Shown here piece after piece: positions 1-12,446 of a stretch of DNA of 64,000 nucleotides. The notes beneath the pieces are model-generated. The model was not told the DNA's origin. It saw only the letters and a list, made by a program, of their open reading frames with translations, and made no database searches. Both the position numbers and the translations under genes were made by a program. The stretch lies in NCBI GenBank assembly GCA_000165345.1, contig CM000434.1, forward strand, positions 1-64,000. Reading direction: 5' to 3'. Positions within the stretch are counted from its first letter, which is position 1. The number at the start of each line of letters is the position of its first letter.

Positions 1-846
1 TATCGGAATCGGGCTCGGTACCCCAAAACCGAAACCTAAACCTAAACCCGTAAACCTAAACCTAAAACCCTAAAAACCCCTAAACCTAAACCTAAGCCTA
101 AACCCTAAAACCTAAACCCTAAAACCCGAAACCTAAACCCTAAACCCCTAAACCCTAAACCTAACCTAAACCTAAACCTAAAACCCTAAACCCTAAACCT
201 AAAACCCTAAACCCCTAAACCTAAACCCTAAAACCCTAAACCTAAACCTAAACCCTAAAAACCTAAAACCCCCTAAACCCCTAAACCTAAACCTAAACGC
301 TAAACCCTAAACCCTAAACCTAAACCTAAACCTAAACGTAAAAACCTAAACGTAAACGTAAAAAGCGCTAGACCTAAAACCCGTAGAACCTAAAACCCCT
401 AAACCCCTAAACCTAAACCTAAACCTAAACCTAAACCTAAACCTAAACCCTAAACCTAAAAACCCTAAACCCTAAACCTAAACCTAAAACCTAAAACCTA
501 AAACCCTAAACCTAAACCTAAACCTAAAACCTAAAACCTAAACCTAAAACCTAAACCTAAACCTAAACCCTAAACCTAAACCTAAAACCTAAACCTAAAA
601 CCCTAAACCCCTAAAACCTAAACCCCTAAACCTAAACCTAAACCTAAAACCTAAACCCTAACCCTAAACCTAAACCTAAACCTAAAAAACCTAAAACCCT
701 AAAACCTAAACCCTAAAAACCTAAACCTAAACCTAAACCCTAAACCTAAACCCTAAACCCCTAAACCTAAACCTAAACCTAAAACCTAAACCTAAACCTA
801 AACCTAAAACCTAAACCCTAAACCTGAACCTAAACCTAAAACCCAA
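1..846. repeat. Telomeric repeat array with mixed CCTAAA and CCCTAAA units (G-strand TTTAGG/TTTAGGG), roughly 130 copies. The outermost 40 nt and the block at 295-400 contain degenerate variants (CGTAAA, CGCTAAA).
   Basis: Direct reading: the hexamer/heptamer repeats continuously from the first bases to 846. C-rich strand running 5'->3' from the end inward is the orientation expected at a left chromosome terminus. TTTAGG is the published Cryptosporidium telomere unit. Confidence 0.95.
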
Positions 847-850
847 TGCT

Positions 851-860
851 TTGGCGCGCA
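851..860. promoter_or_regulatory. TTGGCGCGCA, an E2F-like GC element immediately internal to the telomere array
   Basis: A GC-rich 10-mer in an otherwise AT-rich junction. Same family as the GGCGCC palindromes upstream of most genes in this window. Confidence 0.4.
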
Positions 861-1173
861 TAGGATGAAAATAGATCTAAAAAATTGGTTTTTAAAAAAA
901 CGGAAAAAAAACAAATGAAGCTATTTTTTATACTGGCTTTCTTTTTAACAATTTGCCTAAAAATATGGAAAATCAAAGGAAATAGATTACAAATACCATT
1001 CAAAAAAAAAGATTGACAAAAGGGCTAAAATGGAAAAAAATAAAAGATGGCAAAAAAAATGAAAATGAAGAAACTTACGAAGATCAAATTTATAATACAG
1101 GGCCACTTCTCCTAGTCTCTATCATTGCAAGAACAAATATTATTTATCCTTATGTGGGGAACGCTAGCAATAA

Positions 1174-1872
1174 AAAAAATGTAAAGAAATAAAAAATGGT
1201 GGCTTTTATGCATATACTACAGAACTGGTTTATGTTGCACAAGTTGAATGTAAAAAAGATGTTATTATTCATGGAGAAAATGGAGAACTCAGCTTTGATT
1301 TTGAAGATAAAGAAATTTTTGTTAATACAGATATAATTGTTACAAGAAAAACTATTAAACATCCAAGCCATGTTAAAGTAACATCATACAAAGTTGGAGA
1401 AGTTCCATTGCATTGCCCAAGTGTAAATAACTTAAATACTGTACTAATTGATCGGAGCTTTGATGTAAAAATTGATCAAAAATACACCAAACATTTGGAA
1501 CTGGTTTTTATTGGAATTGTTAAAAAAACAACCCTTGAAATAGAATTCCCGCTTGTAGATGTCGAAACTGGAAGTATAAAAAATTATCAATTTGATGAAT
1601 TTTCTTATATTATTTATGAAGGAAGCCAAATTTTTACTTCAATCCCAATTCTAGGTGGAAATATCTGTGATATTAAGGTTTCTAGTACAATTAAATGTAG
1701 TCCAGGAAGCCCAATCAACTTTATTTATGAATTAGAAAACGGAAACTTAGTGAACAATCAAGTTAAAGTACTGACAATTGATCTGTTTGGAAAACATGTT
1801 TATCAAGATCAAAATCTAAATAAACTATTAGAACGTGTAAAAAAAGCGCTTATTGATGATAATGATCAATAA
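1174..1872 (+). CDS. Subtelomeric hypothetical protein ORF of 232 codons, open from the stop at 1171-1173, with no in-frame ATG (the track start at 1408 is a TTG). Either a gene remnant or a gene whose 5' exon was not found.
   Basis: Frame-1 translation from 1174 reads KKCKEIKNGGFYAYTTELVYVAQVECKKDVIIHGENGELSFDFEDKEIF...LHCPSVNNL..., continuous with the track ORF and non-low-complexity. A candidate signal-peptide mini-exon (MKLFFILAFFLTICLK, ATG at 915) lies upstream in a different frame, but no clean GT donor was found. Confidence 0.35.
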   Translation, partial: KKCKEIKNGGFYAYTTELVYVAQVECKKDVIIHGENGELSFDFEDKEIFVNTDIIVTRKTIKHPSHVKVTSYKVGEVPLHCPSVNNLNTVLIDRSFDVKIDQKYTKHLELVFIGIVKKTTLEIEFPLVDVETGSIKNYQFDEFSYIIYEGSQIFTSIPILGGNICDIKVSSTIKCSPGSPINFIYELENGNLVNNQVKVLTIDLFGKHVYQDQNLNKLLERVKKALIDDNDQ

Positions 1873-4800
1873 ATAATTATTAGGCTGAATTATGAGAATA
1901 TCAACCAATTTTAAAATTATTTTGAATAGGCCGTGCAAAGCTCAACTATACTATTTGATTTAGATATTTCCCGAAAAAAAATACTTAGAAAAACTTAAAT
2001 AACTTAAATTTATTGGCTATACTAATCTTTGAAGAAATCAAATTAACATTTAATTGGCAATATTTTACTGGGCTAATTTTGAATTAAAATTAAATTAATC
2101 ATGATTAGTTACAAAACTGTATTTAAACATGTCTAATATTTAAGTAATATTAAAACAATAATAAAAATAATTTGGAAATAGAAGGTTTCAGAATTTATTC
2201 AATACTAAATTAAGTTTATACTTATTTAATTTGATTTTATATTTGATATTATTAATATAAAATCAAAGAAACTTTAATACCTACATGTACAAATTATTTT
2301 TGGAATTTGTTAATTTTCAACTCATCAAAGTCTAACATTTAATATTTCTAAGTTGTAAGCTTTAAAGAAATTATTATTCATTAGTTTCAAATTGTTTAAG
2401 AAATATTCGATTTTAGTTGTATAGTCAACAAAATAAATATTAGATTTTAATCTGTTTGAAACAAATATAAAACCAGGCTTTAACCATTTAGTCACTTAAT
2501 GATGAGTTTATTTTTTAGTAATAGGTTTTTAATATAAAAACATGCCTTGTAACTACAAAGAAAATTTTTAAAATAATTTACAATATAACAATTTACTATC
2601 GAACTTAGAAAAATACAATCACTTATAATTTCTTCTTGATATTTAATTTATTGCCTTCTTAATTCATTATTTATTATTAAATAGATCAAAATGTGATTTG
2701 CTTCATTTCATTTCTAATTTGTAAAAATCAGCTTTAGAATATCATGAAAAATATAAAATACAAGAAAAAACATTTTCTACTCTTAATTTTTGTTTTAATG
2801 GTCCAAATTACCATAATCTAAATTAAAGTGAAAAAATTTATATAGACAAAAAAATAAAAGTATTGAATAGCAAAATATTCAATCCAATAATTTTAATAAA
2901 TTCTTTTAAAAACATAACAACTAAATATTATTAAGAGAATTAGTTGAAACATAATATATATGTTGTTTTTGTTGAATAAACAAATTACAAATTATATCTT
3001 TAGAATTATAAATTAATTTATTTGAAATTATAATTTAATTTTGAAAAAAAAGTATATGAATTTATAATTTCTAAGTATGAACTTGTCTTACAATATTTCA
3101 ATGAAAATAAACGCATGAGACAAATTTAATACCAAACCAATCATCTTTAAATACTATTTACTATTGCTCAAAAAGTAATCAAAATTGTCTTTGAATAAAG
3201 TAACTCCATTTATAACAATTAAACAAGATCATTCAATGATGAAACAAATTATTGGAAATATAATCTTTAAATGAATTTACTCTATAAATTTATGCTTGAA
3301 ACTTTTTGTATAGAATATTTTTATAATAAATAAGAATTCATTTTGAAAAAAATAGAATTTTTTGTTTGAATAATAATTATTAATATTAATTCGAGTTAGT
3401 ATATTAGATCGCTTTAAATTATTAACTTTATTGTTTAACAAAAAATCTGAAAGTTTTAATTAAATTATTTTGTAGAACTTTAAATTCCCATGCAATATTG
3501 TACGGATTGTGGAATATATTCAATTATTTTTTCTTTTATCCAAATATTACAAAAAAAAAAAAGCTGATTTTTAGTCATTTTCTTAAATTTTACTTTTTAG
3601 AGAGAAATCTTAAATAAATAAAATGCATTTTGTAACTTATAGAAATAATTGTATTTATTATTCTACGAGGGTAAATAACTTTTAAAAAAAAATCATTTAA
3701 TAAATGTATGTTGTAGAAATACTGATTCCTGTAATTGTGAATTGAATTATATATTTACAAATAGTTTTTGAATTATTTGCTGAACTTCTAAAATGTATAA
3801 GTGAAAATTTTTTTTAAAGAATTCTCAAAATTACAAAATATTTAATAACTTTAAGATTTGATAACTATTATTAAAGAGTCAAATAGTATAGTATCAATTT
3901 AAGTACTTCATATAATAATTGCATGATATTGTTATATTTATATCAATTACAAGTTTTTTTTATTCGATACACCTAATTTTTTCTATTTATTAGAATTTTA
4001 GAGTACAAGACAACTTATAGTAAAATTATGCAGATATTTTACAAATAAACAATTGAAACCTAGATTATGTGAATAAAATTGATTAATTAGCAAAAAAAAG
4101 GTTATTCAAGAATAATTTAATTTTTCAAATTAATATTTAACTATTTTTTATATGAATTCTTAAGTTAGGTTTATATCTAGTTGAAATTGAAGTTGTTATT
4201 AATGATACATGAATTATTGATCTTAGATTTGTGCAATGTCTAAATAATGAATATTCACATTATCATGTGATAAACAAAGTTGATTAAAAAAGTTATTATC
4301 TAATTTACCATCTTTATTATTCACTTACTTAAAGAAAATCTTTGCTTTTGATTAATATATCTAAAGTAATAGACTAGACTCGTGCAAAGAAAAATCAATC
4401 AGCCTATTTATACAAAAAGAGTTTCTAGACTGATAAAAATTATTTTAAATTAAATAGAAGGAATATTTATTATGATTAGCTTATAAATAATACAATTGAA
4501 AGATGTTTAAGTAGATAAATCCTGACAAAAAAAAAGAATTCTTATTCAAAAAAAAAGTCAAAAATCTGTTTATTAGAAATACTATTATAAAGAAAAGAAT
4601 TGTTGAAAATTCTTAATACTTTTGAAAATCATTAACATGCATATGCTGATAATTAATTTAATGTTAAAATACATATATTTTAATATTAAATTAATATTGA
4701 TTTTTGTATCTCGCAAAAGTTCAGAATTAAAGTTTGTTCAATTGTGTAATTACTTTAATTCCGTAAAAAGTATGTACAATATACAATTATCTGTATTAAT

Positions 4801-5417
4801 AATTATCAGGTAAGAATTTCAAATTTTTTAAAAAATTTATAACTAAATTTGTAACAAAATAGTAGACCGGAATCATTTAGAAAATTCAAATAAGCACTCT
4901 AAATTAAACAAAGCTAAATAAATTCACTTGGGATTTACTCAATATCTAACAAAAAAGCAGTGCTAATTTTTTCAACGAACTTATTCAAAATATTGGTTTA
5001 ACTTTTATTCACTTTCTACAAAGGCATTTGCAGAATAGAATTTGCTTCGAGTTTGAGAATGAAATTAACATCTTTAAAGTCAGTCCAAACAAGATTCTGT
5101 TAAAAAACCCATTCTTGCAGCAAGAAATAAAGAATACTTAAAATTCAAGTCCAACTGAACATTCACAAACTCATTTCTTTATTTAACCGAACAACTTGTG
5201 AAAAAAATAGCAACCAGCTTTCAAATTTAACTGAATTTTTAAACGTATATTGTTTTAAATTATTGTGATAATTTAAAACAATTTTGATGAGCTTTCATGA
5301 GAAAATTTTTCAAAATTGATTCTCCTTCATTTTAACTTGATTAATATCCAGCTATCGAGAAATACAACACATACAGATAAAATTTAGAACTTGATCTTAC
5401 AGAGTTAAAGATCACTT

Positions 5418-6053
5418 TTAATCACAATATTTGCAATGTTGTCTTTTTCCAGCTCCTGGTTTTATAAAATGTTGGGCACTTGGGTTAGTAGGACAATTTG
5501 TAGAGAGACATCCCACAGGTTTAACAAGTGGACGACAATTAGGGTTATAACAAGGAGGTATTTTCCCATCTCCCGCAGAAGAACGATAACAACTTCGAGG
5601 CATACTAGTACTAAGCGGTTTAATACCACGAAAACCCGTTGAATTCCCACCAGTTTGTCCGGAAGATGAACCTGTAAATTGCGTACTAGAACTTGAGGAA
5701 GTCCCAATAGCTCTACTTAATAGCCGAGCAAGACCTAGTGAGGAGCCAATAGGAATAGGTCCTTTTTGCGGATTTTGAGGACCTTGTTTGAATGGAACAT
5801 GTTTCTGTTGTGGACCAGAAGGACCAGATACAGTATTACGTAATTGAATAGCTGTTTTAAGAATCCCTCGACCTCCAGTTCCAGCTAGGGGACGATAGAA
5901 ACCAGACTTCAATTTTATAAAGGAATACTTGGAGGCAAAATCTGGATTAATGGATGTATTTAAAAAATCATTAAAGAAAACCTGATCTGATAAAAGCAAT
6001 AAGAAATTGAATAGAACAGTGAAAAACGAAAACAACTTCAAATAATTAAACAT
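5418..6053 (-). CDS. Secreted Gly/Ser/Pro-rich protein (211 aa) with a Cys-rich C-terminal tail; hypothetical
   Basis: ATG verified at 6053. N-terminal signal peptide MFNYLKLFSFFTVLFNFLLLLS. Middle region is G/S/P/Q-rich (GSSSGQTGGNSTGFRG..., GPSGPQQ). C-terminus carries 8 Cys (PCYNPNCRPL...GCLSTNCPTNP...HCKYCD). The ORF is conspicuously GC-richer than its flanks. An E2F-like site lies 80 bp upstream. Confidence 0.6.
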   Translation of the reverse strand: MFNYLKLFSFFTVLFNFLLLLSDQVFFNDFLNTSINPDFASKYSFIKLKSGFYRPLAGTGGRGILKTAIQLRNTVSGPSGPQQKHVPFKQGPQNPQKGPIPIGSSLGLARLLSRAIGTSSSSSTQFTGSSSGQTGGNSTGFRGIKPLSTSMPRSCYRSSAGDGKIPPCYNPNCRPLVKPVGCLSTNCPTNPSAQHFIKPGAGKRQHCKYCD

Positions 6054-6128
6054 TCTTAATAATTGTAAACTTCTTTTATAAGTGGAAGAAAAGATATTGC
6101 CGGGGAGAAACAGTTAGAGGGGAAACGC

Positions 6129-6140
6129 TTTGGCGCCATA
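6129..6140. promoter_or_regulatory. TTTGGCGCCATA, E2F-like palindromic element
   Basis: About 80 bp upstream of the minus-strand gene starting at 6053. Confidence 0.5.
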
Positions 6141-8696
6141 TTACGTATCTTATCAAATTAAAGAGTGAAAAAATTTGATTGAAAACAGAACTCAATTTTT
6201 CTTAATATTTGCGTTCATCTTTCCTATGATATTGGAATTGCTTGCTTTGTGTTAATTTATGTCAAAACTTCATGAATGTTATATTTTTTTTCTAAAGAAA
6301 AAATGCTGTAATTAACTACCATTCGAATCATTTTTTTTTTAAATAAGTTTAAGTTGATGAAGAAAAATGATTTCACTAAGTGTTAAATGATTGTTACATG
6401 AAATGTTTGCTTATAATTTTTCTCATTACTTCAGAAACTAATAACCATATGTTTTTATCATAATGAGATGATATTTCTGTGAAAATTAATTTATTTTGAC
6501 TTAATTTATAATGGTTGATAAAATTTCTAATCACAAAATATTTGTACACTAACTTGCTATTTAGCCTATTATTTTTGTAACTTAATATTTCAAAATATTA
6601 TGTGGAAGAGATCGATCAACTTTGTTAATAATATATTGATAAATTGTAGCAAGTTCAATAATAAGTATTATAGCTGAAATAAGGAACGATATTCTGAGAA
6701 GATAATATTATTTATTAGATAATTATTAAATAGGTTGAAATTATTATGCTTAAATCTTGTTGTAATAATAAATTAAAGTGCTTTTTCTTATAATTATTAA
6801 AAAGGCTTGTTTAAATTACAAATTTTTTTTCGAAAAGCTAAGAATTTGTTTCCCAAAAATATCTAAATACAGAAAATATTAAATATTTTGAATTAAAAAA
6901 ATGGTTAATGATTTAAAATATAAATTATCTTTAAGGAGTCTATATTGAATAATAATGATTTAATTTATTAATATAAATTAAGATATTCATCAATTTGATC
7001 CGAAATCACAATTAAAAAAAAAGTGAAAATTTGGCAATATTTATTTTAATACAGGATTTTTTTTTCGAATTACAAAAATTACATTAAATATTTAGTACTT
7101 TTCTCATAAAGCAAATTAAATTATTTTTAATAGTTTATGTTTCTTTATCAAAATGATTAAATAGTAATTTAATTTGTTATTAAATAATCATTACATTTAC
7201 AAGTTTGAATTCATTTATTGTAATAAAGATTTATATCTATATTTTTACGTGTATAATAACTATTTTAAACATGTAAATTAGAATTAGTTAAATTTAAATG
7301 TAAAATATTAAACGAAAAAAAATATATCAAATTGATCCTTAATAAATCTAATAAATCGAGTTCAACAGATTTTGTTGAAAAAAGTGTGAGAACTATACTA
7401 TTTTCTTAACCTCTGTTTGCTGTGACATAATTCCTTTTTTTGAAATAAATTTTTTTAAAAAAAATATTATTCAACAAGAGATGAAACAAATTTTTCCATA
7501 TTGTTTTTGAATTAAATTACTTTTTGTGAATTTCAGTGAAGATTTTGTCTAATATGTTTGAGCATTTCAACAATGGGAAGTTTGTCAGTAAGACAACTTA
7601 TTCTTTTAATTAGATATTATTATTTGCAAATTTATGGATTGATACTAATCATCTAGCTACTTTAAGGCTTATAGTTAATATTTATATTATCTTTTGATTT
7701 ATTCAATTATTAAATCTTTCTTGACACTAATTTATTCTATTTATAAATATATTTATTGATATTGATGTAAATTTTTCATGAAAAAACAGAATAAAAGACA
7801 AATTCGTAAAGTATAAGATTACAAAATTTTCTATTCACTTATAGTTTTATTGAATTGTAAAATAAGTTATGAATAAATAGTTTGGAAGTTTTTTTACTCC
7901 TAAAGAAATGATGTTCAATTTTAATTATATATAATATTTAAAAGATAAATAGCTTCTTAATAGATTTTTTTAATGAGCTTAAAATTAAATGGTATTTTTA
8001 ATCATACATTATTCTCTAACATACTTCTAATAAATTCAATTGAACAATATATCCCAAAATAATTAATTAAATATATTTTTAATCCAAATAAAATTCATTA
8101 TTTATTTTGAAATAAATTTTTGAATTATATGAAGAAACAGTTATTAATTTACGAGCAAATATAATTAATTATTAATATTTGGATGGATATTTAATATATC
8201 AAATAATCATCTCTACCATACGTAAGATATGGCTTTCAAAGAAAAAAAAATATGTAAATAAATTTTCTTTGAAAATCAAGTATTTGTAATTCTAAGTTCA
8301 TCTTAAAATTGGATATTTAACTAAAATTGAAGAAAGTTGAATTTAAATTTTTTTTTTTTGCCTACATTATTAATTCAACATCAATAATAGATAAGATAAA
8401 TTCACTTAATATAATTATTTTTATCATAGGATATATTATTAATATTAAAATTGATCTTTTTTAATAAATATACTTTTTTTAGACAAAGGATAGTGATATT
8501 CAAACTGGTGACTATATTTGTTTAACAAACTTTAGTATTAATAAATCTTTATAAAAGAAATACAAATTTAATTTAGAGAAATATTAAAAATATTTAGCTC
8601 ATATGATTTAAATTTCAAAATGAAAAAACCAAAATAAATTTACAATTTAATATCACGGAAGGGGGGGAGAGAGAAAAAAAAAGTCATGAACAAAAT

Positions 8697-9899
8697 CTAT
8701 TTACTATAATTCATTACTTCTTTTACGATTTCAACATCATGAACATGACTTTCTCTTAATCCAGATGTTGTTATTTCAACATAGCTTGATTTCTTCCATA
8801 ATTCTTCAATTGAGGCAGAACCTAAATAGCCCATGCAGGATCTTAGTCCTCCAACAAGCTGATATACTACACCTTCCATTTCACCTTTATATTTAACTCT
8901 ACCTTCAATACCTTCTGGAACCATCTTGTTTTCAGGTCTTTTCTCTTGGAAATATCTATCCCCACTACCACTCTTCATTGCTCCAACACTTCCCATGCCT
9001 CTATAATACTTATAAACAGTATCGCCTATAAGTTCTTTTTCACCTGGACTTTCTTCAGTGCCAGCAAGGATTGAACCAATCATTACACTTGAAGCTCCAA
9101 CAGCTAATGCTTTTCCAATATCACCACTATATCTTATTCCTCCATCTGCAATGATCGGAATACCAAATTTACTGGCAACTGATGAACATTTCTCAATTGC
9201 AGTGATTTGAGGAACACCAACTCCTGCAACAATTCTTGTGGTACAAATACTTCCTGGACCAATTCCAACCTTTATCCCATCTGCACCATTCTCAATTAAT
9301 TCTTTTGTTGCTTCTTCTGTTACAACATTCCCAACAATTACATCAATATTCATTTTTGACTTAATTTCTTTCAAAGTTCTGATAATGTTAAGGGAATGGC
9401 CATGCGCTGAGTCTAATACAATCACATCTACTCCTGCTTCTACTAATAATTTTGCTCTTTCTATTTCATTTACACCTATTGCTGCTCCAACTCTTAATCT
9501 ACCTTTATTATCAAGATTTTCATTGCTATAAGCATCAATATTATTGTTAGACTTTGTATCTTTTCCATCTGTACTTTCTTTGTCTAAATTTTGATCTGGA
9601 GTACTTTCATTCTTTTCTAAATTAGATATCCAATTCTTGACTTTCAATACTTCATTCACCTGACTTTCCATATCCATATTTTTGTGAATAATTCCAATCC
9701 CTCCTAGTCTCGCCATTCCTACTGCCATTAAATGTTCTGTTACTGTATCCATTGCAGAGCTTATCAGAGGGATTTTTAGAGAAACATTTTTTGTTAATTT
9801 TGTTTCTAAGCTAACTTCTCTTGGTAGTACCTCTGAATAATTTGGAACCAACAAAATGTCTTCGAATGTTAAGCCTTTTCCTATGTTTTTTGTACCCAT
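8697..9899 (-). CDS. IMPDH: Inosine-5'-monophosphate dehydrogenase, bacterial-type, 400 aa, with the CBS subdomain largely absent
   Basis: ATG at 9899 verified. TIM-barrel IMPDH hallmarks are present: catalytic loop GIGPGSICTTRIVAGVGVPQ, IADGGIRYSGDIGKALAVGA, flap/C-terminal GGLRSCMGYLG. The short linker in place of a full CBS pair and the overall sequence are typical of the epsilon-proteobacterial-type enzyme used as a Cryptosporidium drug target (published locus cgd6_20, recalled from memory). Confidence 0.95.
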   Translation of the reverse strand: MGTKNIGKGLTFEDILLVPNYSEVLPREVSLETKLTKNVSLKIPLISSAMDTVTEHLMAVGMARLGGIGIIHKNMDMESQVNEVLKVKNWISNLEKNESTPDQNLDKESTDGKDTKSNNNIDAYSNENLDNKGRLRVGAAIGVNEIERAKLLVEAGVDVIVLDSAHGHSLNIIRTLKEIKSKMNIDVIVGNVVTEEATKELIENGADGIKVGIGPGSICTTRIVAGVGVPQITAIEKCSSVASKFGIPIIADGGIRYSGDIGKALAVGASSVMIGSILAGTEESPGEKELIGDTVYKYYRGMGSVGAMKSGSGDRYFQEKRPENKMVPEGIEGRVKYKGEMEGVVYQLVGGLRSCMGYLGSASIEELWKKSSYVEITTSGLRESHVHDVEIVKEVMNYSK

Positions 9900-9964
9900 G
9901 TTTGATTATTTTATCCTTAATTGAAATAGTCGATATCTAATTAATATTTATCATATAACAGGAA

Positions 9965-9972
9965 TTTGGCGC
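9965..9972. promoter_or_regulatory. TTTGGCGC, E2F-like half-palindrome about 70 bp upstream of IMPDH
   Basis: A GC island in an AT-rich 5' flank. Confidence 0.4.
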
Positions 9973-10160
9973 TTTTAACAAAGTGTCCAATTTGACATTT
10001 GTTTTATTTGGCTAACACTTTTATGTTAAAAAAAAAAATGTTAGGAATATAATTAGCTTTTAGTATATAACATTAAATATAGAATCACTTCACGTTGATT
10101 CTGTCTAAACTTTTTTACATGATCATTATTATAATTTTCACACTTGAATAAAATAATATG

Positions 10161-10170
10161 TTGGCGCCAA
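10161..10170. promoter_or_regulatory. TTGGCGCCAA, perfect 10-bp palindrome (E2F-like) about 260 bp upstream of IMPDH
   Basis: Direct reading. The identical palindrome recurs at 24211, 47491 and 57287. Confidence 0.55.
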
Positions 10171-10960
10171 TCCACTAAGCATTCAAATTATTTTTTTTTT
10201 TATAATGAAGATTATTTAACTCATTTAATTCTAGGTTGGTTAAACTAAATATTACTAGTATAATCAACTTTTAGGCTGTCTTGATTGATGTATTTCTGTT
10301 CATGATTATTAAAATTTTAGTAAAATCAACAAGAATTTTTTTTTTTTTTACAAGCAGTTAATAAAACCATTCAACTACCTTTCAGTCAATGATTAAAAAT
10401 TATTATTGAAAGACACTGCTTCACATTATATTTAATTTAAATAAAAATGCGATTCTTATTCATTTGATTAAATTACCGAAACAATGATTAATAAATTCTT
10501 TCAAATTATTTGATTTTTTCCTTCATTAATACAAGGGATAATATTTAAAAAAAACTAACAAAAATGATAAACTCATTATTTTTATTATTATTTTAAATGT
10601 ATTTAAATATCTTGATTTCAATAAATATGTTCAGTTCAATTTTTATAAAGTTTAAAAAAACGGGTTGAGTTTTGACTTATTCATTCAAATAATATGAAAT
10701 AAAGTTAATAATCAAGTCAAAATTTTGTAAAAAATAAGTCAATCAAATTTGTGATAAAGTAGAATATTTGTACAACCAAGCTTAAATAATAATTGAAATA
10801 CATATTCATTCATATTATTTCAACGATATTTAAAAAAAAAAATTAAAAATAATTACATTAACTACCCAGTTTAGAAATAAATATATTTATAATAAAGAGT
10901 AATATAATGCGGAGACTTATTATTCAAAGCAGAGATTTTGTATATTTGAATGAATAATAA

Positions 10961-11782
10961 TTAAATTATATCCTTCAACCTTTCAAACCTTGACATTCTT
11001 TTAAAGTATTCTTCTGAAATTAAAACAAGTTCTTGTTCTAAAATCCAGTTTTCCAATCTTAAGCGATAACAGTCAACTTCACCTTCTTCCTTATTTTCCA
11101 ATTTTGAAATACAGTGTAATTCATAAGAAATTGTTTTGCTTATGAGTAATTGCTCAAATTCTGACATAACTCTTCTCAAGAATGATTTTTCAACTAAAAC
11201 AAATTCTGATTCTACCAAAGCTTTACCAGCTCTTCCCACAAATCCAGTATGATTGTAAAACCTATATTGAGTTGAAACAATATTTGATTCAATTGTAAAA
11301 CATTTATTCTTTTTAAGATTCTTCTTTTCTTTCAATATTTCTGCTTTATTCTCCAATAAATCAACTAAATAAAGAATATCACCGCATTTTGTTCCATCAT
11401 GGTACTCGTTTCCATTTTCACATCTTAATCTGTAATAAACAGATAAGAAATATGAGTATTCTTTAACAAGACCAATAATTATTGAGTATTGTGGTAATTT
11501 CTGGTAACAATCTAATGCATAACTAGTATTTGAATATTTGAACAAATGGCTATTTCTTGATTCTTCTGAAGGGTTCATATCCAATATTAGTATATTTGTA
11601 AATAGAGTCGGGACTCTTTCTGTAATATTATACTTTGAATAATATTCTTTTGTTTCATTTTTTTCTTGTATGCCTTCTTTTAACGACAATAATGAAAAGT
11701 TAGAGATGCTTTCGGAATTTCTAAATCCAGTCTTTGTTAAAAAATATGTTGCAAAAAGAAATAAAATTTCAAAAATTTTCAT
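10961..11782 (-). CDS. Hypothetical secreted protein, about 273 aa
   Basis: The track start at 11800 is a TTG. The first ATG at 11782 gives MKIFEILFLFATYFLTKTGF, a clean signal peptide. The remainder has mixed composition with several Cys and no recognisable domain. Confidence 0.55.
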   Translation of the reverse strand: MKIFEILFLFATYFLTKTGFRNSESISNFSLLSLKEGIQEKNETKEYYSKYNITERVPTLFTNILILDMNPSEESRNSHLFKYSNTSYALDCYQKLPQYSIIIGLVKEYSYFLSVYYRLRCENGNEYHDGTKCGDILYLVDLLENKAEILKEKKNLKKNKCFTIESNIVSTQYRFYNHTGFVGRAGKALVESEFVLVEKSFLRRVMSEFEQLLISKTISYELHCISKLENKEEGEVDCYRLRLENWILEQELVLISEEYFKRMSRFERLKDII

Positions 11783-12446
11783 GTTATTATCGAAAAGCAA
11801 GTAATAAAGAATTCCACCTAAAATTTATTTTACTTAATTTATATTTTGTTTTTTTAATTAAATATTTGACTTAATGTTTGTTTGTCTATAAACCGGCATT
11901 ATTTTTTAATTAAATTCAATTTTGCCAATTTTGGCTCCAAACAATTTATTAAAAAAATTGTTTTCTCCCTAAAACTGTGTATTTTCCTGAATTCAATATT
12001 TTCATTTCAAATTATTCACTTTGAAATTTATTTATGTTGTGTTATACTATTGAAGTTTCTTTTTTCAATTAAGTTGATATGTTAATATTTTGACGAATTA
12101 AGTTTTCTTTAAGTCAATGCGTATTTATCAAATTCAAACCTTTTGTAACAAAGATTCCGTAAACAATAGATAAGTAGCAATTTGAGAGAATTGCCCAATA
12201 TTACATAAAAACAAAAAAGACAAATATTACACACTCATTAATATTTAGAGATAAATATAGTTTGAACTAAAAATATGTCGCTCATATAAATAATATATAA
12301 TAATCTCTTGCAATATTAAGATCAAGATCACAGAATAATTTTTATTCTCTAATACTTACTTCAAAGACCGGAATAATTATTGAACAAACGCCGCAAATGT
12401 ACAAAAGCTATTTGCTATCGTCTCACATAACTAACAAATAACACAT

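Follow-up and report, generated by a model that had tools for sequence, protein, structure and literature searches.

A telomere-adjacent NFDQ-family gene of Cryptosporidium parvum chromosome 6 (left end), probably broken at two poly(A) runs

We analysed a stretch of 64,000 nucleotides (contig CM000434.1 of GCA_000165345.1, positions 1 to 64,000 of the forward strand; hereafter the window), which opens with an array of telomere repeats followed by an open reading frame (ORF) devoid of a start codon (1174-1872). Judged from gene content and alignments, the window opens at the left chromosome-6 end of IOWA-type Cryptosporidium parvum. The ORF, when aligned with intact orthologs, is the last three-quarters of a complete single-exon gene of about 320 codons, which begins at the ATG at position 915 and is identified by its sequence as cgd6_5 (CPCDC_6g5, CPHLJ_6g5). 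What sets the frame of the start apart from that of the ORF is the lack of a single A in each of two poly(A) tracts. The account which we consider probable as a whole is that of a genuine left telomere adjoining an NFDQ-family gene that was recently broken at these two poly(A) runs.

The ORF consists of 232 codons and a TAA stop, and its translation contains no methionine at all, so the observation made in a previous sequence-only reading of this DNA, that it lacks an ATG, was correct. The ATG at 915 opens MKLFFILAFFLTICLK... in a frame different from that of the long ORF, and reading from it ends at TGA 1014-1016, which gives a product of 33 amino acids (aa). Translation of the region 841-1890 in three frames revealed a passage from the signal-peptide frame to a middle frame and then to the long ORF, with switches at runs of nine and eight A's. 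The elements of the gene are as follows.

915-1016, plus strand: segment 1 of the coding sequence (CDS), with the start and the signal peptide (MKLFFILAFFLTICLKIW...), aligning with residues 1-32 of the C. hominis protein.
1002-1010, plus strand: poly(A) tract 1, A9, a -1 frameshift; A10 in every intact allele and in C. parvum HLJ.
1011-1171, plus strand: CDS segment 2, in the second frame, a Lys/Glu-rich linker followed by the conserved YNTGPLLLVSIIARTNIIYPYVGNAS.
1172-1179, plus strand: poly(A) tract 2, A8, a -1 frameshift; A9 in intact alleles, A10 in C. parvum HLJ and DRR729220.
1180-1872, plus strand: CDS segment 3, the bulk of the 1174-1872 ORF, ending with ...DDNDQ and the stop TAA at 1870-1872.
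1199-1228, plus strand: three T->G changes private to the window (1199, 1202 and 1228), 3 nonsynonymous and 0 synonymous.
1456-1479, plus strand: the degenerate signature SFDVKIDQ, aligned to NF....DQ (IPENFNVETDQKY and similar).

When the three frames are joined, the frame-corrected product has 318 aa and is 90% identical over 100% of its length to ChUKH1_09595 (322 aa, E 2e-185), 65% identical to ELE39_000001 of chipmunk genotype I (320 aa) and 88% identical to the truncated model CPHLJ_6g5. Segment 3 is 94% identical to C. hominis, and segment 2 includes the LLLV.I...P.LG motifs conserved in the family alignment. At the DNA level, the alignment with four intact C. hominis copies was colinear from upstream of the ATG to past the stop, and the coding gaps consisted of one in-frame gap of 12 bp and exactly two gaps of 1 bp, one per A run. 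Relative to the intact orthologs, the disabling lesion comprises two -1 frameshifts, with a stop after 33 codons; stop codons other than those induced by the frameshifts were absent from the cgd6_5 CDS. The mean Kyte-Doolittle hydropathy of residues 3-15 (MKLFFILAFFLTICL) is 3.0, and the AF2 model (predicted local distance difference test score, pLDDT, 83.7) has a helix at residues 2-21, an all-beta body and a C-terminal helix. The encoded protein is predicted to bear a signal peptide and would be secreted.

The reality of the frameshifts was assessed in four IOWA-type datasets, namely the window, CP044417.1 (GCA_015245375.1, IOWA-ATCC), CP029785.1 (GCA_031892065.1, a record carrying CPCDC locus tags) and a Logan contig of SRR5007564. 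All four have A9 and A8, with no indel over the 11,160-19,058 bp compared. Between 842 and 19899, the window differs from CP044417.1 by 7 mismatches and 0 indels, and from CP029785.1 by 8 mismatches; the SRR5007564 contig differs from it by 4 mismatches over 11.7 kb. One of the IOWA-type assemblies is a PacBio, Illumina and Nanopore hybrid (PMC8744675). Since both deletions recur in the three other C. parvum datasets, the frameshifts are, on this comparison, real in the IOWA lineage. The CDC annotation labels CPCDC_6g5 'partial', and its 215-aa product equals the translation of window positions 1225-1872 except for two private substitutions and one strain single-nucleotide polymorphism (SNP).

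Other lineages bear different tract lengths. C. parvum HLJ (IId type) and the Logan contig of DRR729220 have A10/A10, which amounts to one +1 shift, at tract 2; the HLJ gene model begins at an internal ATG (237 aa). The allele in the Logan contig of ERR14760746, 97.4% identical to the IOWA allele, has A10/A9 and is intact; its ORF call is of 339 codons, 321 of them from the conserved ATG. Thus, the length states seen between lineages are A8, A9 and A10 for tract 2, and A9 and A10 for tract 1, and because the tract lengths differ in this way, the two C. parvum lineages are, as far as their aligned alleles indicate, broken independently. In the papers on cgd6_5 that we consulted, we found no statement of full-length copies broken at poly(A) tracts, nor of a lesion difference between IIa-type and IId-type parasites.

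Despite the breakage, the gene bears the marks of constraint. In frame-corrected codon alignments, the Nei-Gojobori ratio of nonsynonymous to synonymous substitution rates (dN/dS) was 0.24-0.32 over the whole CDS in every measurably diverged pair, and even between the two broken alleles, IOWA and HLJ, it was 0.30, with a synonymous divergence (dS) of 0.22. Codon changes polarised with an outgroup numbered 6 synonymous and 7 nonsynonymous on the IOWA branch, and 7 and 3, respectively, in the intact sister allele. A dN/dS of about 0.3 therefore points to long constraint and then recent breakage, and the pattern suggests that inactivation is compatible with these sequences only if it was very recent. 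The ortholog was reported to be deleted outright in equine C. hominis isolates (PMC11685829); in at least one setting, therefore, the parasite can do without it. We consider IOWA cgd6_5 to be probably a young pseudogene of a dispensable telomere-adjacent gene. Under the proposed mechanism, replication slippage would have removed one A at each tract (A10 to A9 at tract 1, A9 to A8 at tract 2), which would break the reading frame twice; translation from the ATG at 915 would then end after 33 codons, while 232 codons would persist as a start-less open frame. Both slippage as the cause and the loss of function are presumed from the sequences compared.

Among the alternatives, those that the sequence-only reading had offered for the start-less ORF leave hardly any room for belief. 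It proposed either a remnant of truncation by telomere healing, or an unannotated spliced gene with an upstream signal-peptide mini-exon. Both would be suited by a 232-codon ORF without ATG and a signal-peptide-like ORF upstream in another frame, but the full ancestral CDS, the 5' spacer and the E2F-like promoter box all lie inside the junction with the array, this junction is conserved both in C. parvum and in C. hominis, and the full CDS with its 5' spacer rules out the truncation model. As to splicing, all residues between the supposed mini-exon and the ORF align to coding sequence of the intact ortholog, family motifs included, the stretch 915-1872 is colinear with the uninterrupted 322-codon C. 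hominis ORF, and an exhaustive search for a GT-AG intron that would join the ATG-915 frame to the long ORF gave 0 solutions and no continuous ORF, which rules the spliced model out; the proposal is refuted at the DNA level. What survives of it is the ATG at 915 as the start of a signal-peptide protein belonging to the same gene as the ORF; the mini-exon gives way to a colinear single-exon CDS, and the gene, far from being unannotated, is present as CPCDC_6g5 (partial) and CPHLJ_6g5 and is cited as cgd6_5. It also appears very improbable that the missing A's are long-read homopolymer errors and that the gene is intact in C. parvum IOWA. Homopolymer undercalls are a classic nanopore error, and the terminal 1.2 kb of the window is of lower grade, with 25 junk bases, 40% canonical telomere units, a G-rich patch and 3 private T->G changes. 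However, A9/A8 recurs in another three datasets, which show no indel at all across 11-19 kb, the Illumina-polished hybrid included, an independent annotation treats the gene as 5'-partial, and the other lineage has a different non-triplet length, A10, in an assembly as well as in a Logan contig. Given the agreement of the four datasets, we rejected an assembly error.

A further possibility, unlikely in our opinion, is that the gene is still used, with the poly(A) tracts serving as a contingency switch or being bypassed through ribosomal frameshifting or slippage in transcription. Among closely related alleles three lengths occur at tract 2 and two at tract 1; IIa-type and IId-type C. parvum carry lesions that are independent of each other and have opposite signs; no further stop codons have accumulated; dN/dS stays at about 0.3 even when the two broken alleles are compared; and the promoter box is conserved. 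Moreover, runs of 8 or more A's number 3 in the 958 bp of the gene, compared with 0.30 per kb in other long ORFs of the window, and contingency genes near Cryptosporidium telomeres have been mentioned (PMC8848321). On the other hand, the Iowa allele would need two separate corrections for read-through, tracts of A8-A10 are short for efficient slippage, the purifying signal is fully explicable by recent inactivation of long-diverged alleles, and the deletion in equine C. hominis shows dispensability. The more specific idea, that the poly(A) tracts form a slippage ON/OFF switch, or allow a bypass by transcriptional slippage, so that expression of a secreted protein varies, is drawn from the three length states, the opposite-sign lesions, the intact allele of 97% identity, the lack of other stops and the dN/dS of about 0.3; we regard it as quite improbable. 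To our knowledge, a contingency-locus mechanism has so far been undemonstrated in Cryptosporidium. If such a switch did operate, parasite populations would vary a secreted subtelomeric protein by it.

Several observations weigh against our preferred account of a recently inactivated gene. Relaxed constraint, with dN/dS near 1, was not observed (the values were 0.24-0.32), and an open frame of 232 codons together with a dN/dS of about 0.3 would also suit a gene that is still used. The pseudogene call is drawn from DNA. The four Iowa-type datasets are closely related isolates, and their agreement bears on that lineage, not on any spread of the lesion beyond it; one of them, the SRR5007564 contig, is termed short-read on account of what Logan usually contains.

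To place the protein in a family, a profile of four orthologs was run with HMMER against 1.84 billion representatives, and 16 proteins were matched at E<=1e-3 (values from 5e-35 to 1e-4 are quoted). The named matches are all from Cryptosporidium (C. felis, C. bovis, C. ryanae, C. tyzzeri/parvum 2g10, C. canis and C. ubiquitum), and most matches are 300-350 aa long. In the alignment of the 16 sequences a hydrophobic N-terminal segment is present in most of them, and the motifs LLLV.I, P.LG.F...KC, (I/F)P.NF....DQ.Y, YAVPI..GC.C and LT.NI.G.RVI can be recognised. The NFDQ family was named for a motif that begins with NF and ends with DQ (PMC11514877). Xu et al. 2020 (PMC7371110), who called the family NFDQ, listed C_bov_16.739 as the cgd6_5500 ortholog; C. 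bovis FG379_000739, which is among our matches (E 3e-9), would be the same gene according to its gene number. In Xu et al. 2019 (PMC6532270), OrthoMCL grouped Chro.60010 and Cch_1.1 with cgd6_5500, cgd5/6_5500 and cgd8_10, and the family was counted as having six members in C. hominis, against three in C. parvum. Both 'Chro.60010 homolog' and 'cgd6_5' were named as polymorphic genes at the chromosome-6 end (PMC9317183).

On these grounds cgd6_5 is placed as a divergent NFDQ member, through profile matches and OrthoMCL rather than through direct comparison with cgd8_10 or cgd6_5500. Its C. hominis ortholog would be Chro.60010 (ChUKH1_09595, XP_666254.1), because this is the first gene of chromosome 6, because the numbering is in register (Chro.60016 equals cgd6_60, which gives a seven-gene register from cgd6_5) and because of the naming in PMC9317183; this equation comes from gene order and numbering, not from direct sequence. 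These indirect routes count against the assignment, as does the signature itself: F and Q of NF....DQ are invariant across the 16 proteins, and N is replaced by S in the cgd6_5 branch. A second protein search, with the 16-member alignment, gave four known proteins among the matches listed and no link to cgd8_10 or cgd6_5500. A Pfam scan of the frame-corrected protein revealed no family, and no paralogs were found by tblastn in the window. The remark of the sequence-only reading that large subtelomeric repeat families do not exist here needs amending, as the gene belongs to the small subtelomeric NFDQ family. Regarding the function of such proteins, a cytoplasmic location and a role in supporting growth were found for NFDQ1 (PMC11514877).

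Two side observations concern the same family. CPHLJ_2g10 (CPATCC_0030850) of C. parvum chromosome 2 is a member with the canonical IPGNFNVETDQKY and is the first gene there by locus number; the usual list of three NFDQ genes in C. parvum does not include it. Because it stands outside these three, the family may be larger than the published counts. An 807-aa protein from an ENA metagenome gave eight matches to positions 226-268 of the cgd6_5 profile (E 2e-14), and it appears, from these matches, to be built from repeats of one family segment.

The telomere itself, together with the candidate promoter next to it, can be summarised as follows.

1-25, no strand: non-telomeric leading bases TATCGGAATCGGGCTCGGTACCCCA, which hold 7 of the 21 G's of the first 841 bases.
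26-841, plus strand: telomere array, C-rich strand (CCTAAA)n reading inward, delimited by Tandem Repeats Finder, a pattern scan and a unit census.
295-400, plus strand: G-containing degenerate patch with its core at 338-386, nine G's in 49 bp.
745-841, plus strand: inherited proximal telomere with fixed variants (CCCCTAAA, CCCTAAA, CCTAAAA, and CCTGAA at 823-828), from assembly comparison.
850-859, plus strand: E2F-like box TTTGGCGCGC, a candidate core promoter, 8 bases (842-849) after the array.

Tandem Repeats Finder described a period-6 array at 26-840, with 123.5 copies, 80% matches and 16% indels. The pattern CCTAAACCTAAACC, with at most 1 mismatch, matched 54 times, always on the plus strand and between 29 and 842, against 0.02 matches expected, and nowhere else in the 64 kb. 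The G-strand TTTAGG runs 5' to 3' toward the chromosome end, which is the correct polarity for a left end. The homologous place ends in telomere repeats in 10 other contigs (3 of Iowa-type C. parvum, C. parvum HLJ, 4 of C. hominis, chipmunk genotype I and the Logan contig of ERR14760746). The junction, ...CCTAAAACCCAATGCTTTGGCGCGCATAGG next to the array, is the same in the three other IOWA-type sources, and a close variant of it occurs in C. parvum HLJ, in the 4 C. hominis assemblies and in the ERR14760746 contig; the chipmunk genotype I contig also ends in an array, with a junction that is only loosely alignable. One of these 4 C. hominis assemblies is TU502, whose Sanger-era contig has 2.36 kb of telomere repeats. 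Since the contigs end in the array at the homologous place and the strand polarity is correct, a true chromosome terminus is, on these alignments, the only reasonable reading. The sequence-only reading had suggested the same and had proposed that this end be compared across C. parvum and C. hominis assemblies, a comparison in which the array turned out to be terminal, not internal. Both the telomere repeat and the left chromosome-6 end are already known: TTTAGG is the published Cryptosporidium telomere repeat, and the chromosome end had been assembled before (PMC8848321, PMC12179316, PMC8744675). The leading bases 1-25 have no counterpart at the telomere ends of the other assemblies compared, and they are probably read-end or consensus noise rather than biology.

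The heterogeneity of the array, noted in the sequence-only reading, was borne out by a census of 127 units, of which 51 (40%) are CCTAAA, 19 are CCTAAAA, 18 are CCCTAAA and 8 are CCCCTAAA, with few others; the units differ by the length of the C run (2-5) and of the A run (3-6). Such a mixture of 6-, 7- and 8-mers was found in non-nanopore assemblies too, and the share of canonical CCTAAA units lies at 36-61% in TU502, in a further two C. hominis assemblies, in HLJ, in chipmunk genotype I and in CP029785.1; in CP044417.1 the share is 83%, as against 40% in the window. Starting at the junction and going outward, the first 97 bp of array are the same in the window as in CP029785.1, and the first 64 bp (778-841) are the same as in CP044417.1; the SRR5007564 contig agrees with it over its 48 bp of proximal array. 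Because the same variants recur in independent assemblies in the innermost 64-97 bp, unit-length variation (T3-4AG2-4) seems to be genuine and inherited there. Distal to this segment the array differs in every assembly, and its length in the window is unlike that in CP044417.1 and CP029785.1; turnover, consensus noise or both would be expected to produce such differences.

The more degenerate inner patch, to which the sequence-only reading had also drawn attention, does exist. Besides the shared CCTGAA there are 12 G-containing positions in the array, and nine of these lie at 338-386 (CGTAAA, AGCGCTAGA, CCCGTAGAA). Its proposed origin as older telomere fixed internally did not hold: at the same distance from the junction, the sister assembly CP044417.1 has clean CCTAAA, with 1 G in 641 bp compared with 21 in the 841 bp of the window, and because the patch is absent there, it is not a fixed internal relic. 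Miscalling of telomere repeats by nanopore sequencing, including that of 6-mers as 7-mers, has been documented (PMC9414165). This miscalling, the 25 junk bases and the T->G changes at 1199-1228 all indicate a low-quality consensus at the end of the assembly. Two origins come into question for the patch: an artefact of nanopore repeat-calling or of the consensus, or a variant of the dynamic distal telomere that is private to this assembly.

cgd6_5 is the first gene on the chromosome, its ATG lying 73 bases past the array (842-914), and the E2F-like box lies within this spacer, with 57 bases between the last base of TTTGGCGC and the ATG at 915. The box is conserved in C. hominis, HLJ and the Logan contig of ERR14760746. 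The consensus TTTSSCGC (TTTGGCGC) occurs 9 times in the window, against 1.06 expected (copies at 850, 6129, 9965, 24214, 25882, 47491/47495, 57288 and 62552); all 9 copies fall between long ORFs, and a start codon follows 66-423 bp downstream of the copies whose spacing was checked. This distribution fits the published E2F-like motif, the commonest upstream motif in C. parvum (PMC3734150). It is conceivable, given this placement, that cgd6_5 uses the box at 850-859 as a promoter.

The assignment of the window to chromosome 6 is based on inosine monophosphate dehydrogenase (IMPDH, cgd6_20), which is encoded at 8697-9899 and whose exact protein is present on chromosome-scale C. parvum contigs; other downstream ORFs encode a CAAX protease and a histone deacetylase. 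All differences between the window and CP044417.1 over 19 kb fall into two tight clusters.

1199, 1202 and 1228: substitution cluster 1, 3 T->G within 30 bp, inside the presumably dead gene.
17452, 17489, 17618 and 17785: substitution cluster 2, 4 substitutions within 334 bp, just upstream of a 1562-aa ORF.

At each position of the first cluster T is found in CP044417.1, CP029785.1, SRR5007564, HLJ, C. hominis, chipmunk genotype I and ERR14760746, and the change at 1228 replaces a Phe (F110) which is invariant across the family alignment. These private T->G changes would reflect either faults in the consensus close to the end of the assembly or the decay of a gene already dead; for both clusters, errors in polishing may be responsible, or else hypermutation or conversion acting locally. 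A genuine strain SNP is found at position 1288, with C in the window and CP044417.1 and T in CP029785.1 and the SRR5007564 contig.

The DNA next to cgd6_5 has several features of its own. The 3.5 kb between the first and the second gene (1873-5417) have 18-20% GC and no ORF of at least 60 aa, are unusually long for a compact genome, and show little conservation: against C. hominis and against C. parvum HLJ the identity is 86-88%, and gaps are numerous. The second gene, probably cgd6_10 (5418-6053, minus strand), encodes 211 aa rich in Gly, Ser and Pro with a hydrophobic N-terminus; its orthologs have 237 aa in C. hominis, 289 aa in C. parvum HLJ and 273 aa in chipmunk genotype I. Divergence within C. 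parvum at 841-12000 is far above the genome average, the identity between IOWA and HLJ being about 88% in the first 4 kb and 95.5% around IMPDH, and the IOWA cgd6_5 allele is nearer to C. hominis (94.8%) than to HLJ (91.2%). This high divergence fits the SNP hot spot reported at cgd6_5, cgd6_10 and cgd6_20 (PMC9317183), and the pattern of identities suggests old haplotypes or introgression.

For the field at large little changes, as the telomere, the chromosome end and the gene were already in public assemblies and annotations. Nevertheless, the current models of cgd6_5 (215 aa, 'partial', and 237 aa from an internal ATG) would misrepresent the locus. Published NFDQ counts (3 in C. parvum, 6 in C. 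hominis) would partly reflect a frameshifted full-length copy, not absence, and host-range arguments built on NFDQ copy number should allow for the frameshifted cgd6_5. With respect to the telomere, reproducibility between assemblies is confined to the innermost 64-97 bp of the array, and support at the level of reads is called for before odd distal patches in long-read assemblies are taken for relics of evolution.

Compared with the telomeres of C. parvum IOWA-ATCC (GCA_015245375.1), CpBCM-BGF (GCA_019844115) and CpBGF T2T (GCA_035232765.1), the window has the same repeat, the same end and the same junction, but it is noisier than these sister assemblies, with its 40% of canonical units, the G-patch at 338-386 and the 25 leading bases, none of which the sisters share. 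Public models of cgd6_5 cover only the 3' open frame (215 or 237 aa). With the other members of the NFDQ family (cgd8_10, or NFDQ1; cgd6_5500, or NFDQ2; cgd5/6_5500, or NFDQ3) cgd6_5 has in common a telomere-adjacent site, a signal peptide, a length of about 300-350 aa and the motifs, and it differs from them in an identity of only about 20-27%, in the motif SF instead of NF and in being a frameshifted copy. Homopolymer frameshifts in AT-rich microbial genomes are known from bacterial phase-variable genes and from poly(A) slippage in Buchnera. Like such poly(A) contingency loci and frameshift pseudogenes, cgd6_5 has changes of +/-1 in coding homopolymers and several length states among relatives; unlike contingency loci, for which reversibility, heterogeneity or rescue would be the evidence, it is known here from alleles that differ between lineages.

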